A stretch of DNA of 28,563 nucleotides from assembly GCA_003345555.1 (NCBI GenBank), contig PRDJ01000024.1, forward strand, positions 1 to 28,563, given 5' to 3'. Source of the DNA: Candidatus Thorarchaeota archaeon (lineage in GTDB: Archaea; Asgardarchaeota; Thorarchaeia; Thorarchaeales; Thorarchaeaceae). This document shows positions 4,254 through 28,563 of the stretch, piece after piece. A program made the translations under genes and the position numbers. The notes under the pieces were generated by a model that saw nothing but the letters and a program-made list of their open reading frames with translations, had not been told where the DNA came from and searched no databases. Numbering within the stretch: position 1 is the first letter of the stretch; each line of letters begins with the position of its first letter.

Positions 4254-6197
4254 ATGCCGTTCCCGTACAAGGGGTATGCAGGTTACTACCTTGAAGTCGA
4301 CCTGACAAAGGGGAATCTCTACAAGCGAGAAATGGAGAAAGAGTGGGCAAGGCGGTATCTTGGTGGAACTGGTATAGCCGCTCAAATCCTATGGGAGCGG
4401 ACAGGTCCTCAAACCGAACCGCTCTCACCTGAGAATGTCCTTGTCGCAGCAACGGGGCCCCTTACCGGTGTCATGTTCTCGCCCTCAGGCAGGATGATGT
4501 TTGCTTCAAGGGGACCCCTCACGGGCATATGGGCCGAGAGTCATGTGGGCGGGTTCTTTGGTCCCGAAATGAAGTATGCCGGGTTTGATGTTGTCATCAT
4601 ACATGGAAGATCCTCAAAGCCGGTCTACCTTTACTTGTGCGACGGAAAGGCGGAGCTGCGTAATGCATCAGATCTCTGGGGCCGAGAGACAGATACTACA
4701 ATTCAGATGATTCGCGAAGAGCACAAGGATCCCTCGATAGAGACGGCCGTCATAGGACCAGCTGGCGAGAATCAAGTGCTCTTCGGATGCATCAGTGTCG
4801 ATGCGCACCGCTCTGCGGGCCGAACTGGACTTGGAGCAGTAATGGGTTTCAAGAATCTCAAAGGAATTGTTGCGAGCGGCTCATTTGGCCTTGAAGCCTA
4901 TAATACGGAGGCCTACCTGAAAGCGAATGAGCAGGAGACGGCAAAGCTCAAGGACCCATTGTGGAAAGAATCCATTGCATCATTGAAGGATTACGGCACC
5001 ACCGGTCTCGTCACCATGATCAACGAAATCGGCAGGCTTCCCACCAAGAATCACTGGACAGGTTTCTATGAAGAAGCAGAGCAAATCGGCCCTGAAGCAA
5101 TCTCGCGCGGGTATAGGATTGCGGAGGAAGCATGCTACGGGTGTTCGATAGGGTGCAAGTATGTCTATAGAATCAAGGAGGGAAGATTCGCAATCGGACC
5201 TGTCGGGGGTCCAGAGTATGAGACCATCATGGCCTTCGGCTCCAACTGTCTCAATAGCAACCTCCAATCCATACTGTATCTGGGAACGAGATGCGATCGC
5301 CTTGGCATGGACACAATATCATGTGGAAAGACTATTGGTTTCGCCATGGAGTTGTGGGAGAAGGGAATACTCACATCCAAGGACACCGGAGGGCTCGACC
5401 TCACGTGGGGAAACGTGGACTCGATGGTCAAGCTTGTAGAAATGATTTCGAAGAAGGAAGGGATTGGGGCTATCCTGAGCCAGGGAACAAGACTGGCCGC
5501 AGAAAAGATTGGAGGTGATGCGGCAACCTATGCTATCCATTCAAAGGGCTTGGAGGCTTCAGGACAGGATCCGCGGGCGCACCAATCGGTTGGACTCACA
5601 TATGCCACCAACGTCAGAGGAGCAGATCATCTCAGGAGTCTCTCAAGCTTGGAGGAACTCGGCTATCCTGATGTTATCATCAAGAGATTCGGAAAGGACA
5701 AGTTTAAGGAGATAATGAAGATTACATCACCAATTCACAAGGGTGAGGTGATCAAGGACATAGAGGACCTGTATGCCCTCGTCGACTCAGCAGTAATATG
5801 CAAGTACGGAACAATGTGGCCCCCGGTTTATTACTTTGACACTTTTGTGAATGTCATCCCGCCTCTCACAGGCATGGCAGAGTGGGGCGACCCAAGAATC
5901 GTTCGTGAAGCTGCAGAGAGGATCTGTCATCTTAGGAGAGCATACAATCACCGACTTGGTATAACAAGGAAACAAGAAACGCTGCCAAAGAGGCTTCTTT
6001 CAGACCCCATGCCCACAGGACCAGCAAAGGGCGGATTTCCGCAACTGGATTACATGCTTGATGAATACTATAAGTTCCGAGGCTGTGACACTAAGACGGG
6101 TCTCCCCAAGAAGGAGACTCTGATTCGATTAGACATGGGTCCGGTCGCCAAGGAACTTGAGGCTAGGAAAATGCTTGCACCCGCACAATCCGCCTAG
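4254..6197 (+). CDS. aor: Tungsten aldehyde:ferredoxin oxidoreductase family protein (AOR-1)
   Basis: Family motifs YAGYYLEVDL, GPAGEN, GRTGLGAVMGxKNLK, ACYGCSIGC, GPEYET, GMDTIS, RGADH and DSAVIC. Confidence 0.92.
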   Translation: MPFPYKGYAGYYLEVDLTKGNLYKREMEKEWARRYLGGTGIAAQILWERTGPQTEPLSPENVLVAATGPLTGVMFSPSGRMMFASRGPLTGIWAESHVGGFFGPEMKYAGFDVVIIHGRSSKPVYLYLCDGKAELRNASDLWGRETDTTIQMIREEHKDPSIETAVIGPAGENQVLFGCISVDAHRSAGRTGLGAVMGFKNLKGIVASGSFGLEAYNTEAYLKANEQETAKLKDPLWKESIASLKDYGTTGLVTMINEIGRLPTKNHWTGFYEEAEQIGPEAISRGYRIAEEACYGCSIGCKYVYRIKEGRFAIGPVGGPEYETIMAFGSNCLNSNLQSILYLGTRCDRLGMDTISCGKTIGFAMELWEKGILTSKDTGGLDLTWGNVDSMVKLVEMISKKEGIGAILSQGTRLAAEKIGGDAATYAIHSKGLEASGQDPRAHQSVGLTYATNVRGADHLRSLSSLEELGYPDVIIKRFGKDKFKEIMKITSPIHKGEVIKDIEDLYALVDSAVICKYGTMWPPVYYFDTFVNVIPPLTGMAEWGDPRIVREAAERICHLRRAYNHRLGITRKQETLPKRLLSDPMPTGPAKGGFPQLDYMLDEYYKFRGCDTKTGLPKKETLIRLDMGPVAKELEARKMLAPAQSA

Positions 6198-6240
6198 GGT
6201 GCAATATGGCAGAACTCTTATGTCAGATGCATCTTGAGAA

Positions 6241-7341
6241 TTGACCATGGCAGACCTCGCCGTAACAATAGCCGGGATTCAGTTCAAGAATCCGGTCCTG
6301 ACAGCAGCTGGCCCCACAACACGTGATGGAGAATCTCTCTTGAAGGCCGCTTCAGGAGGAGCGGGCGGTCTCGTAACCAAGACTGTAAGCGTCAAACCTG
6401 CGGCCGTGGCTAAACCGAACATGGCAGTCTTGCAGCCCGGCAAAGTTGGATCCAGGCGTGGAATGTTGAACGCTGAACTGTGGAGCGAACTCCCGCTTGA
6501 TAGGTGGATTAAGTATGAATACCCATTGGCACTTGGTTCGGGTTTGCCTGTGATAGCAAGCATTGGATACACACCTCAGGAAGTCTCGCAGATTGGGCCC
6601 ATGGTCGAGGAGGCGGGGGTCAGTGCCATTGAATTCAGCACTCACTATGTCGGGGGCCACAAGGAGATTGCCAAGACTCTGAGAGACTGTGTCTCAATCC
6701 CCATATTCGCTAAGCTTAGTCCACAGGTCGATGTGGCAAAGGTCGCCAAAGAACTCGAGCAAAGTGTCGACGGAATCGTAGCGATTAACACGCTGGGGCC
6801 TTGTCTACATATCGACATTGAGACAGGTAGACCTGTGCTTGGGGGCGAGAAGGGCTATGGTTGGCTGAGCGGGGCCGCAATCAAGCCTCTTGCGCTCAGA
6901 TGCGTTGCAGACATTGCACAGACTGTCAAGATACCAGTCATTGCAGTTGGCGGAGTGATGAGCGGCGAGGACGCAGTGGAGTTCTTTATGGCTGGCGCCT
7001 CGGCGGTCCAAGTCTGCACGGCAGCAATACTTGACGGACCGAGCGTATATGGGAAGATATCAACGGAGATTGGCGATTGGCTAGACAAGCACGGTCACAA
7101 GTCTATCGAGTCAATTCGTGGTCTTGCACTCAGCAGTATTGGCAAGACGACTGCGTTCACCTACCCGCCCACAGTAGATACTGCAAGATGTAATTTCTGT
7201 GGCCTATGCTCTAAGTCGTGTGTCTACTCTGCCATATCCGTAAACAAAGAAAAGGAATTCTTTCAGATTGACCGGAAGAAATGTGCTGCATGTGGACTGT
7301 GTGTAGCGATTTGTCCTCAGTCTGCTCTCAGCGCTAGCTAA
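6241..7341 (+). CDS. PreA-like protein (dihydropyrimidine dehydrogenase subunit / dihydroorotate dehydrogenase class 1 FMN barrel plus C-terminal 2x[4Fe-4S] domain) with a non-canonical active site
   Basis: Motifs KNPVLTAAGP, VTKT, GMLNAELWSE, AINTL, GWLSGAAIKP and VGGV...AVQVCTA. C-terminal CNFCGLCSKSC and CAACGLCVAICP. EFSTHY replaces the ELNxSCP motif. An alternative ATG start lies at 6247. Confidence 0.8.
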   Translation: MTMADLAVTIAGIQFKNPVLTAAGPTTRDGESLLKAASGGAGGLVTKTVSVKPAAVAKPNMAVLQPGKVGSRRGMLNAELWSELPLDRWIKYEYPLALGSGLPVIASIGYTPQEVSQIGPMVEEAGVSAIEFSTHYVGGHKEIAKTLRDCVSIPIFAKLSPQVDVAKVAKELEQSVDGIVAINTLGPCLHIDIETGRPVLGGEKGYGWLSGAAIKPLALRCVADIAQTVKIPVIAVGGVMSGEDAVEFFMAGASAVQVCTAAILDGPSVYGKISTEIGDWLDKHGHKSIESIRGLALSSIGKTTAFTYPPTVDTARCNFCGLCSKSCVYSAISVNKEKEFFQIDRKKCAACGLCVAICPQSALSAS

Positions 7342-7357
7342 CAGAAGCTGTTGGGCC

Positions 7358-8542
7358 TCACAGTGATATCACGTCATCCAACCCTAGCGTTAGGCGTTTG
7401 GCCTTTCCTTTCGTTACGGCATAGTCATTCTCAACACGAATTCCGCCTACCGCCTTGAGATAGACGCCCGGTTCGATGGCCATGACGTGTCCTTCAGAAA
7501 ACCTGTTGGCATATCGGTACATGCTGGGGTTCTCATGAACCTCAAGGCCAATACCGTGACCCAAGCCGTGCATCATACCTTCAGTCGCGGAGGGGTTGAG
7601 ACGTCTTGAGTCGAAACCGCGATTCTTCAAAACGTGGAAACACGCCATGTTGACATCATCAATTACAGCTCCGTCTCTTAGAGCATCGATAGCTGCATCA
7701 CCGGCCTCCATTACTGACTCGTACATCACTCGAACCTTGTCGCTGAGAGAGCCCTTGACAACTGTGCGGGTGACATCAGCCACGTAGCGGTCAAGCTTGA
7801 GCCTAGGGTAAACGTCTATGATTACAGGTTCACCTGCTTTGAGCAGATCTTTTGGAGCACCCAAGTAATGCCAGTCGAAGGCCTTTCGTCCCACAGCAAC
7901 AATCGTGTCTTCGGCCGACTCGGCACTTCTCTCGAGCTGGGCACGTTCAAGAGCCAATTTGATGTCGTTCACAGTGAGAGGCACTCCACGATGGAGCAGT
8001 GTCTTGTTCGGACCGACCTTTGATTCCTTTATCATTTGAATGGCCTGCGACACACTCTCGATTGTGGCATCTCCTGCCCTCTTGATTGCCTTAATCTCCG
8101 TACTCGACTTGGTAGCACGAGCATCCTTGAGCAAATTGGGAACAACCTTGACTGCATACCCCAGCTGCTGAATTGCCACAAGTACCCTTGCAGGGATGTG
8201 GTCCGGCACACCCACGACCTTGCCAGTGAACATCTTTCTCATGATGTCTCCGTACACCACATCGGGGCAGTCTTCTGCTCTCTTGTTCTGCCTCATGAGT
8301 TGAGTGAGTAGGTCCGTGAGATCGTATGTGCGTGTGACGAAGCTCTCTTTGTGAATGCGATCCAGTGTATTGAATCCTGCAGCTACCAAGCCGTTGTCGC
8401 CTCGGGCCTTGAAGTAAGTAATCTGGTCAGGAGACCGAAAGCCAGTCAACCAGTATATGTCCGGAGTCGTGAATGCATTACCCTCGACAACGATAGCATC
8501 GATACCTGCGGCTTCCATCAGTGGGTCTAGGTCTTCAAGCAT
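7358..8542 (-). CDS. M24 family Xaa-Pro peptidase
   Basis: The metal-ligand motifs IIDV...ADVTRT, HGLGHGIGLEVHE, IEPGVY and GIRVEND are all intact. Confidence 0.88.
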   Translation of the reverse strand: MLEDLDPLMEAAGIDAIVVEGNAFTTPDIYWLTGFRSPDQITYFKARGDNGLVAAGFNTLDRIHKESFVTRTYDLTDLLTQLMRQNKRAEDCPDVVYGDIMRKMFTGKVVGVPDHIPARVLVAIQQLGYAVKVVPNLLKDARATKSSTEIKAIKRAGDATIESVSQAIQMIKESKVGPNKTLLHRGVPLTVNDIKLALERAQLERSAESAEDTIVAVGRKAFDWHYLGAPKDLLKAGEPVIIDVYPRLKLDRYVADVTRTVVKGSLSDKVRVMYESVMEAGDAAIDALRDGAVIDDVNMACFHVLKNRGFDSRRLNPSATEGMMHGLGHGIGLEVHENPSMYRYANRFSEGHVMAIEPGVYLKAVGGIRVENDYAVTKGKAKRLTLGLDDVISL

Positions 8543-26391: not shown

Positions 26392-26437
26392 AAACAAAAG
26401 CATCAACTTTTATTTCTGGAACTCAAATCCAGAGATT

Positions 26438-26484
26438 CGGGCGGATTAACCGAGCAGTGAATGGCTCATCCGCCCGTCTTTTTT
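26438..26484 (+). terminator. GC-rich hairpin followed by a T-tract (candidate terminator or structured RNA)
   Basis: CGGGCGGAT (26438-46) pairs with ATCCGCCCG (26468-76), with an inner GAGC/GCTC pairing, followed by TCTTTTTT. Confidence 0.55.
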
Positions 26485-26564
26485 GCGATTAAGGTTGGGC
26501 GGGCGTTACCTAAGCTAAGTTGCCCTCTTTGAAGCCAGAGCGGGTCGTAAGAGGCACTCATACG

Positions 26565-26579
26565 CTTAAACTTATATAT
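26565..26579 (+). promoter_or_regulatory. Candidate BRE/TATA box for tfb
   Basis: CTTAAAC-TTATATAT lies about 110 nt upstream of the tfb ATG. Confidence 0.5.
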
Positions 26580-26690
26580 CCATGTAACTCCGTCACGGAA
26601 CAGCTTTCCCGGATAGCAGTTTTGTTTGCTGATTGTTGGCTTCCAATTCTGGGGCCAAGTCGCCGGGGAGGCAAATCAAGGTGAATTGAC

Positions 26691-27635
26691 ATGGCAAAAC
26701 CAGCCCGCGCTATGGCCGACAAGCGACAAGGCCTGGCAGTGTGCTCCATATGCGGCGGAAGCCAGTTCTACGAGGACTTGACCCGAGGAGAGAACATCTG
26801 CATTTCCTGCGGCTGCGTCATCAATGACAGAATCATGGATACAGGACCAGAATGGAGGGCATTCACTGCTGAGGAAAAGAACGCTAGGGCCAGAACCGGA
26901 TCACCTTTGACGCTCACCATGGCAGACAAGGGCCTAGCCACGACCATAGGGTGGAGCGACAGGGATGCCAACGGTCGTTCTATTGCTGCAAACAACAGGG
27001 CCGCAATCTACAGAATGCGGAAGTGGCAAATCAGAACGCTCGTCCACAGCTCTCAGCATCGGAACCTCAGCATTGCGATGAGCGAGATGGATAGGCTCAC
27101 GTCGCAGCTCGGTATCCCGGGAGAGACAAAGGAGACCGCAGCCCTGATCTACAGGAAAGCTCTTGGCAGACGCTTGGTTCGAGGAAGAAGCATCGAAGGC
27201 ATGGTAGCGGCTGGGATATACCTGTCCTGTCGGATTCACAAGATTCCTAGACAGCTTGATGAGATAGTCACTGAGGCAAGAGTGAACAGAAAGGAACTCG
27301 GCCAGTGCGTAAGACTGATTCTACGCAACGTCGACATCAGGGTTCCAATCCCCTCTGCGAACGACTTGATGCCACGAATCTCTGCGGACTTGTCCCTTGA
27401 TGGCAAGACCCTACGGTGCGCAATGGATATCATCAACAAGGCCAGAAAGCATGGCCTCACAGCAGGCAAAGACCCAGGTGGCCTGGCAGCTGCTGCGCTC
27501 TACATTGCGGGAATAATAGAGAACGACAGACGTACTCAGAGGGAAATTGCTGAGGCGTCCAACGTCACCGAAGTGACTGTGAGGAACCGCTACAAGGATC
27601 TCGCACAGAGTCTGCAGATCACAATCAGGCCTTAG
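26691..27635 (+). CDS. tfb: Transcription initiation factor IIB
   Basis: Zn ribbon CSIC...CISCG, B-reader motif DTGPEWRAF, and two cyclin repeats (GRSIEGMVAAGIY; GKDPGGLAAAALY...TQREIAEASNVTEVTVRNRY). Confidence 0.97.
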   Translation: MAKPARAMADKRQGLAVCSICGGSQFYEDLTRGENICISCGCVINDRIMDTGPEWRAFTAEEKNARARTGSPLTLTMADKGLATTIGWSDRDANGRSIAANNRAAIYRMRKWQIRTLVHSSQHRNLSIAMSEMDRLTSQLGIPGETKETAALIYRKALGRRLVRGRSIEGMVAAGIYLSCRIHKIPRQLDEIVTEARVNRKELGQCVRLILRNVDIRVPIPSANDLMPRISADLSLDGKTLRCAMDIINKARKHGLTAGKDPGGLAAAALYIAGIIENDRRTQREIAEASNVTEVTVRNRYKDLAQSLQITIRP

Positions 27636-27721
27636 TGATGCTCTCGGTTCCCTCAGGTTTGCCATGAACTTGCAGAGGGAATCATTCTTCTGCACAAACT
27701 GTGAGCAAGAGGAGTAATCAG

Positions 27722-28477
27722 ATGACGAAATTCCTGCTTGCTCTGTGCGGACTGCCGGCCTCTGGAAAGACAACTCTTGCAGAGGAGGTCAGAAAAAGCC
27801 TGAAGTCGCGCTCAAAGGTCGAGATTGTTAGCACCGACAAGTGGCGCGACCAAGACTACTATGCCAAGTTCACGCCTGAGAAAGAACATACTGTCAGGCA
27901 GGCTGCACTCGAGACGACGACGAGAATCCTCTCAAGAGGAACATCGGTCATCCATGACGACACCAACTACTACAGCAGTATGCGTCACGAGCTCTATTCA
28001 ATCGCGAAGGAGAGCAGGTGCGCATTTGCTGTAGTCCATATTTCCACCCCGCTTGAAGTTGCACTGAACTGGAATCTGTCAAGAGCAGATCCGCTACCTG
28101 AGGAAGTCATCCTCAAGATAGCACGCAACTTCGAACCGCCTGGATCCAAGTACGAATGGGATAGGGCAGTCGCAGTTGTGGACCTATCTCAGACCAAGGC
28201 TGAGGACGCGGCACGAGAGGTCGCTAAGATAATCCGCACACTAAGGACAATCCACGAAAAGACCAGGGAAGCCGGCGAACCAGTGGTGGATTTGCTGGAT
28301 ATCGCCACACGCCAAGCGGTTGCTTCGTTCCTTAGCGAATTCGAGACGTACAGAAGTGATCCGAGAGTGCATAGAATCAGAAGAACAATACTTGCGGAAT
28401 CGAGGAAGAGAAGCGCAACACCAGAGGAAGCAAGAGACCGTGTCACAGTCGAACTGAAGCGGCTATCGTCCTCATAG
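27722..28477 (+). CDS. pstk: L-seryl-tRNA(Sec) kinase (PSTK; Kti12-related family)
   Basis: P-loop CGLPASGKTT, then STDKWR, DDTNYYSSMRHEL and FEPPGSKYEWD, closely matching archaeal PSTK motifs. SD GAGGAG precedes ATG 27722, and the gene is adjacent to tRNA-Sec. Confidence 0.85.
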   Translation: MTKFLLALCGLPASGKTTLAEEVRKSLKSRSKVEIVSTDKWRDQDYYAKFTPEKEHTVRQAALETTTRILSRGTSVIHDDTNYYSSMRHELYSIAKESRCAFAVVHISTPLEVALNWNLSRADPLPEEVILKIARNFEPPGSKYEWDRAVAVVDLSQTKAEDAAREVAKIIRTLRTIHEKTREAGEPVVDLLDIATRQAVASFLSEFETYRSDPRVHRIRRTILAESRKRSATPEEARDRVTVELKRLSSS

Positions 28478-28507
28478 GGCCCGCTGACATGACTACACCC
28501 TTGGTAA

Positions 28508-28563
28508 TGGCGGCCCCCCAAGAGAATCGAACTCTTATCGCTTGCACGATCATGGGTTTGAAG
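28508..28563 (-). tRNA. selC: tRNA-Sec(UCA), 3' two-thirds only (5' part beyond the window edge)
   Basis: The minus strand reads CUUCAAA (anticodon loop; UCA at 28561-28559), CCCAUG, a variable arm AUCGU-GCAA-GCGAU, A, a 4-bp T arm AGAG-UUCGAUU-CUCU, a 9-nt acceptor 3' strand UGGGGGGCC, G73 and an encoded CCA. This is the archaeal/eukaryal 9/4 fold. Confidence 0.93.

Follow-up and report, generated by a model that had tools for sequence, protein, structure and literature searches.

A probable PSTK gene lies tail to tail with tRNA-Sec in a family-wide selenocysteine gene cluster of a wetland Thorarchaeon

The end of a 28,563-nt stretch of DNA from a wetland Thorarchaeota MAG, hereafter the window, very probably carries the gene for PSTK, which is the O-phosphoseryl-tRNA(Sec) kinase, tail to tail with a 9/4 tRNA-Sec with the anticodon UCA. 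Both genes belong to a selenocysteine (Sec) cluster that extends across the family, and that is broken here by a gap of ~2.1 kb. PSTK would use ATP to convert Ser-tRNA(Sec) into O-phosphoseryl-tRNA(Sec), which SepSecS would then convert into Sec-tRNA(Sec). Contig C24, which makes up the whole window, belongs to an assembly of 82 contigs (2.28 Mb, estimated 93% complete), and the public runs with matching DNA are also wetland metagenomes.

At the contig end, tfb (26691..27635, plus strand) encodes a TFIIB-type transcription factor that matches NF001658 with 420.8 bits, above the cut-off of 384, and holds the Pfam TFIIB zinc ribbon and two cyclin (TFIIB) repeats. It is one of four TFB paralogues in the genome, the other three being encoded on contigs C57, C42, and C59 (51–53% identical), and it is the copy conserved upstream of pstk. 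A spacer of 86 nt (27636..27721, plus strand) separates it from pstk (27722..28477, plus strand), which runs from ATG 27722 to TAG 28475-28477 and encodes a P-loop protein of 251 residues. In the alignment, the N-termini of the relatives start at this ATG, and not at the upstream GTG 27701. The tRNA-Sec (28508..28563, minus strand) is cut by the contig end. The distance of 30 nt (28478..28507) that the first-pass annotation had given between the pstk stop at 28477 and the encoded CCA end at 28508 holds when read from the sequence.

The 251-aa protein is predicted to be the Thorarchaeal orthologue of archaeal PSTK, an assignment that draws on scores against HMMs and the PDB, on the genomic context, and on the phyletic pattern, and that is secure short of biochemistry; it would be active as a kinase. 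Its best NCBIfam model is that of the archaeal PSTK (TIGR03574), matched over the full length with 139.3 bits (E 1.4e-40), followed by the eukaryotic PSTK model with 72 bits. The best solved relative is the PSTK from Methanocaldococcus jannaschii (3adb/3a4l), which aligns with residues 4-248 of 251 (E 2e-25), C-terminal domain included. Across the Asgard and other homologues, both the P-loop GLPASGKT at residues 10-17 (GxxxxGK[ST]) and the Walker-B Asp (D39) are invariant, as are K16, R42, D79, D80, R88, and R121, together with the DDTNYY block. In the C-terminal part, which matches the tRNA(D-arm)-binding domain at the sequence level, R197 and R220 are also invariant.

Several features would fit another identity for this protein, namely a tRNA-dependent P-loop ATPase or kinase, Kti12-like or otherwise, for which Ser-tRNA(Sec) is not a substrate. 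The Pfam family matched is named KTI12 (PF08433, 124.6 bits), and the TIGR03574 score does not reach the curated cut-off of 290.5. The NCBI name of the orthologues is only 'AAA family ATPase', and one JGI record is named Kti12, the JGI name of the orthologues being O-phosphoseryl-tRNA(Sec) kinase. In addition, the RxxxR motif of PSTK, known from structure work on the M. jannaschii protein, is conserved only in its second Arg (R121), which is invariant, while at the first position the window protein and most Asgard homologues have Trp, and a few have Arg. However, this reading is highly improbable. The cut-off reflects a narrow seed set, since the ten other non-Methanococcales homologues tested, PSTK-SelB fusions among them, all stay below it too (101–205 bits). 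Kti12 itself (6qp0) matches with only E 4e-4 and no significant stretch, compared to the full-length match to PSTK. Moreover, the gene is located in a cluster with tRNA-Sec, SepSecS, and SelB, and homologous PSTK domains are found fused to SelB, a fusion that is known from Archaeoglobi and Bathyarchaeota (PMC9499178). Finally, PSTK and SepSecS are absent together: a PSTK homologue is present in 21 of the 24 genomes of the same family (81% identical in the closest, 40–54% in the rest), and exactly the same three genomes, G005, G008, and G016 (91–93% complete), hold neither PSTK nor SepSecS, with deletion scars at the locus in one of them. The proposal of a true PSTK rather than a Kti12-like paralogue is therefore upheld by the structural and HMM matches, the clustering, and the joint absence.

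As an additional observation on the fusions, metagenome proteins of ~730 residues (P0135, P0145, P0155, P0161, P0174, P0176, and P0179) hold an N-terminal PSTK domain, and in the two that were scanned, P0135 and P0145, this domain is fused to a SelB-type GTPase.

The tRNA gene facing pstk is present in the window from C32 to A76. Read on the minus strand, it comprises the anticodon UCA (28561-28559), the 3' strand of the anticodon stem (CCCAUG), a 5-bp variable arm with a GCAA loop, a 4-bp T stem with the loop UUCGAUU, a 9-nt 3' acceptor strand (UGGGGGGCC), G73, and an encoded CCA. The long variable arm, the UCA anticodon, and G73, which are the marks of an archaeal-type tRNA-Sec, are thus all three read directly in 28508-28563. 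The Rfam model RF01852 matches this piece with 24.4 bits over model positions 34-91 and flags it as 5'-truncated; the score lies under the gathering score of 47 bits only because 35 nt of the tRNA are missing. The closest relative, G003, has a complete gene (57.7 bits) whose 3' part matches these 56 nt without a difference. In that gene, the 5' strand pairs with UGGGGGGCC and the anticodon stem pairs with CCCAUG, these being the two pairings whose failure had been named in the first-pass annotation as evidence against its reading.

Complete tRNA-Sec genes of the relatives score 52.1–67.5 bits with RF01852, and in 19 of the 20 loci scanned they are convergent to pstk and at most 0.4 kb from its stop; in the twentieth (G014), the tRNA-Sec lies 1.6 kb away. 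ARAGORN calls no tRNA in the window, and calls tRNA-SeC(tca) in all 20 full-length relatives, so the miss is due to the truncation. The initial remark that general tRNA scans often miss this tRNA is backed by the sensitivities published for archaea, which are 57% for tRNAscan-SE and 93% for ARAGORN (PMC5330540).

The 9/4 fold proposed for this tRNA is seen, along with a 7-bp D stem, in the tRNA-Sec of twenty relatives, where covariation supports it well. In an alignment of 19 relatives and the window, a cloverleaf with a 9-bp acceptor, a 7-bp D stem with a 4-nt loop, a 6-bp anticodon stem, a 5-bp variable stem, and a 4-bp T stem leaves 98.3% of the cells paired, and compensatory changes are found in 17 of the 31 pairs (6/9 in the acceptor, 3/4 in the T stem, and 5/7 in the D stem among the 19 relatives). 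No shuffle out of 500 attains these values, and the pairing is lost once the partners are shifted by 1–3 columns. The 5' half lies outside this assembly, and the window tRNA would thus share the 9-bp acceptor and the D stem of its relatives. The pairs G2-C71 and C3-G70, described as the main identity pairs for archaeal PSTK (PMC2330242), are invariant in 19/19 relatives, and the window retains G70, C71, and C72. The Thorarchaeal tRNA-Sec holds no intron. An encoded CCA has been reported for only 5% of archaeal tRNA-Sec genes (PMC5330540); however, it was rejected as a peculiarity of this tRNA-Sec, because 14 of the 17 tRNAs called by ARAGORN in this genome encode CCA too.

The tRNA breaks off at C32 since the window spans a complete contig, whose end falls at this point. 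Its 5' half was not found in the 82 contigs of the genome, either through contig-end overlaps or with the GGCCCCCCA and CATGGGCTTCAAA patterns; RF01852 returned ordinary tRNAs only across the whole genome, and exact-pattern scans of metagenome contigs with the window-specific spacer gave no match. With public runs aligned to the region, the probable source sample shows a rise in contig depth from 8.5 to 132 inside the tRNA-Sec. A 62-nt high-depth contig extends past 28563, and another contig holds the same tRNA with a different flank from 28507. Probably, the conserved tRNA core is common to several co-occurring populations or strains and collapses in the assembly graph, which would explain the break at this point.

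The DNA across the break can be followed on other contigs. An identical PSTK is also encoded on a 6-kb Logan contig and a 36-kb ENA contig, both known from their gene tables. On the ENA contig, pstk is followed by a gap of 304 nt and then, on the opposite strand, by a 216-aa gene, SepSecS (441 aa), and aSelB (468 aa); the 304 nt leave room for a full tRNA-Sec. In the present assembly, SepSecS seemed absent at first. However, contig C42 ends with a SelB gene that passes its cut-off (G000:C42:75201-76604) and with the first 27 codons of SepSecS (G000:C42:76597-76677), which occupy the last 81 nt of the contig, overlap the SelB stop by 11 nt, and encode a start with 25 of 27 residues identical to the SepSecS of G003. 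C42 and C24 are thus neighbours across ~2.1 kb of unassembled DNA, C42 should join the window end, and the missing SepSecS is an assembly gap and not biology. SepSecS and SelB, which the first-pass annotation had guessed to lie beyond the contig edge, are there on the ENA contig, in the relatives, and at the C42 end. The selenophosphate synthetase SelD (G000:C77:65691-66542; 216.8 bits, above its cut-off) has one in-frame TGA, and is therefore itself a selenoprotein; together with SelB, it bears out the claim that this genome uses UGA for Sec. On a separate note, the SepSecS of G003 (C13:131935-133207) is found in two frames, covering residues 1-73 and 74-443, which reflects a frameshift in this MAG or an error of its sequencing.

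These contigs also bear on whether the tRNA piece is a decayed relic and does not belong to a working gene as its 3' half. The piece is just 56 nt long, and in one relative (G008, see below) a tRNA-Sec in decay has been retained at this locus. However, a relic is hardly tenable here: the cut falls exactly at the contig end, the 56 nt do not differ from the intact G003 gene, the genome holds SelB, a SelD with TGA, the start of SepSecS, and vhuU, the ENA contig with the same PSTK leaves enough space for a full tRNA, and short high-depth contigs continue beyond 28563. The 3' half of a working tRNA-Sec gene is thus the preferred reading.

The arrangement at the contig end is part of a conserved cluster. 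A survey of 10–13 kb around pstk in 17 relatives, a comparison that the first-pass annotation had proposed, recovers the order tfb > pstk > < tRNA-Sec < Sel_Asgard < SepSecS < SelB in 16 of the 17 relatives with enough contig, the exception being G009, where Sel_Asgard, SepSecS, and SelB are located elsewhere. Four further Thorarchaeota MAGs have the same protein order. Outside the family the linkage is looser: in the loci from Jordarchaeia and Promethearchaeota, neither tfb nor tRNA-Sec is found within 3 kb of pstk, and in one genome of another family, tfb adjoins pstk and SepSecS lies 5.6 kb away.

The 216-aa gene between tRNA-Sec and SepSecS, Sel_Asgard (L053:1138-1788, minus strand), matches NF045535, 'putative selenocysteine system protein', above its cut-off. 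An equivalent gene is present in 16 relatives and missing from this assembly. All 30 family genomes encode the protein, the three without PSTK and SepSecS among them, and it may therefore not be specific to Sec. In its AlphaFold2 model (pLDDT 92.2), an alpha+beta domain forms the N-terminus and a four-helix bundle the C-terminus. Foldseek searches against the PDB yielded generic folds and no functional lead (best TM 0.34), and VIA-align found common folds only, with Z ~11 for generic four-helix bundles and ~10 for Bet v1/KA1-like alpha+beta domains; none of the matches listed is L7Ae/SBP2-like. The existence of NF045535 implies that database curators are already aware of this neighbourhood, and no paper naming it was found in the literature.

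One of the three genomes without PSTK and SepSecS still holds traces of both. At the G008 locus (L091, G008:C1:28000-41000), remnants at 6119-7750 comprise the first 12 codons of pstk (6205-6240), the last 24 codons of SepSecS (7363-7434), and the N-terminus of SelB (~115 codons, 7408-7750). These scars flank an intact tfb, an intact Sel_Asgard, and a decaying tRNA-Sec, which scores 46 bits, has an A:C mismatch in the anticodon stem, and is not called by ARAGORN. They form a deletion series marking the loss of the Sec trait, and G008 is thus a relative that has lost Sec.

The coupling of pstk to tfb proposed in the first-pass annotation comprises two parts, of which the linkage stands firm and co-transcription is plausible only, with evidence pointing both ways. 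Regarding linkage, each of the 21 family loci has tfb upstream of pstk and in the same orientation, and tfb shows much higher conservation than pstk (64–94% identical in the relatives). In four genomes (G004, G019, G012, and G009; loci L078, L080, L081, and L085) two tandem tfb genes precede pstk, the pstk-adjacent copy being the more diverged (64–70% identical to the window TFB vs 78–87% for the distal copy). The only strong TATA-like element near tfb in the window is CTTATATAT at 26571-26579, which lies 112 nt upstream of the tfb ATG and would therefore imply a long leader; RNA-library cover of the tfb region begins only at 26661-26690.

The odds are roughly even that read-through from tfb, past the elements in the gap, accounts for at least part of the expression of pstk. 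The gap measures 63–110 nt in 13 of 16 relatives. The earlier statement that it lacks a TATA box agrees with the absence of an AT-rich TATA-like pentamer 24–50 nt before the pstk ATG, both in the 86 nt of the window and in 13 of the 16 sequences examined. Such pentamers are thus found upstream of pstk in only 3/16 sequences, vs 10/17 upstream of tRNA-Sec (24–42 nt). Furthermore, a 286-nt contig from a metatranscriptome library (X7 record 16) spans 27480-27765 with 5 mismatches and bridges the gap, which is no proof of a single transcript, as RNA-library contigs can contain DNA. The stretches 26400-26618, 27203-27421, and 28298-28516, which X7 leaves uncovered, are uninformative at a contig depth of 2–5x.

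On the other hand, pstk might have a non-canonical promoter of its own in the gap, so that there would be no co-transcription and the adjacency to tfb would be an inherited gene order without regulatory meaning, a possibility that falls a little short of an even chance. Directly after the tfb stop, the gap holds a hairpin (27646-27683; -28.3 kcal/mol, z -2.2) followed by the pyrimidine motif CATTCTTCTG (27683-27692), and a hairpin and then a pyrimidine/T-rich tract are found right after tfb in most gaps of the relatives too, resembling a 3'-end element. The GAGGAG at 27709-27714, 7 nt before the ATG, is not conserved in the relatives. In contrast to these elements, which would favour a separate transcript, the crossing RNA-library contig, the short gaps, and the scarcity of AT-rich pentamers speak for read-through. 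The same division affects the motif CATTCTTYTG, or AACTCCTTTTG-like, which is found 22–36 nt before the pstk ATG in 12 of 16 sequences, even where the gap extends to 238–1024 nt. It sits at the distance expected of a TATA box for a leaderless mRNA, and is similar to promoters of tRNA genes in this genome, for instance TCCTTAAGG; however, in an EM motif search of the tfb-pstk gaps its score of 127 stays within that of shuffles (114 +/- 6, maximum 134). The hairpin and pyrimidine tract, together with the upstream motif, could consequently represent a terminator or a non-canonical promoter. A scan for sigma-70 promoters and intrinsic terminators was set aside, since these are bacterial models not applicable to an archaeon, and it gave chance-level matches only.

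At its other end, pstk is tightly packed against the tRNA-Sec. From the pstk stop to the 3' end of the tRNA, the relatives have spacers of -14, 0, 0, 0, 5, 5, 8, 10, 22–30, and 85 nt, plus 399 and 1608 nt in two outliers. At 0 or -14 nt, an antisense overlap of the pstk mRNA with the tRNA-Sec gene is unavoidable. No oligo-T tract is found in the 30-nt spacer of the window, and as there is little or no room for a terminator, the pstk transcript would be expected to run antisense into the tRNA-Sec gene here as well. This packing could be envisaged as a regulatory device, in which the pstk transcript, possibly fed by read-through from the TFB paralogue, would cross the tRNA-Sec in antisense, and the expression of the kinase and of its substrate tRNA would limit each other through transcriptional interference or through pairing of the antisense RNA with the tRNA precursor. 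Such a role is improbable.

Taken together, the data confirm that this wetland Thorarchaeon decodes UGA as Sec, and support the vhuU and SelD annotations of the same genome. The Sec machinery and the use of Sec in Thorarchaeia are already published, and the components are textbook, so that the understanding of the pathway is unchanged by the cluster. What is added is modest and descriptive: the conserved order of six genes, the close convergent packing, and, in one relative, the scars of deletion. No description of the family-wide cluster tfb-pstk-tRNA(Sec)-Sel_Asgard-SepSecS-SelB was found in the literature. Its value is that the cluster and its natural deletion series provide a handle on the uncharacterised Sel_Asgard and on how the use of Sec is lost.

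Compared to the PSTK from M. jannaschii (MJ1538; 3adb, 3a4l, and 3am1), the window protein has the same length and the same combination of an N-terminal P-loop kinase domain with a C-terminal tRNA-binding domain. Both share the GxPxxGK[ST], Walker-B Asp, and DDTNYYxSMR blocks, and the M. jannaschii enzyme acts on a 9/4 tRNA-Sec with a 7-bp D stem, as the window protein would too. However, the two proteins are only ~30% identical, the Thorarchaeal score stays under the equivalog cut-off, and Trp replaces the first Arg of RxxxR. The Thorarchaeal pstk is located in a cluster of Sec machinery genes beside tRNA-Sec; no description of such an arrangement was found for Methanococcales, whose gene neighbourhoods have been examined (PMC11227280). 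With the eukaryotic Kti12 (6qp0), a PSTK-like Elongator cofactor, the protein shares the Pfam family PF08433 and the P-loop fold, but the match is marginal, and both the context and the phyletic pattern of the window gene are those of the Sec pathway.

Within the Asgard archaea, Lokiarchaeota are known to hold the Sec machinery (tRNA-Sec, PSTK, SepSecS, EFSec/SelB, and SelD) together with eukaryote-like SECIS elements (PMC4989117), and an Asgard-wide survey has reported 77.4% of Sec users among Thorarchaeia (PMC11227280; also PMC9723677). The Thorarchaeal genome agrees with this published machinery in its component set, including a Sec-containing SelD and a vhuU with a eukaryote-like SECIS. 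The difference lies in the arrangement of the genes. In Lokiarchaeum, the machinery genes are located on distinct contigs, except for EFsec and tRNA-Sec, which lie ~6 kb apart (PMC4989117), whereas the Thorarchaeal family holds four machinery genes, Sel_Asgard, and tfb in one tight cluster.
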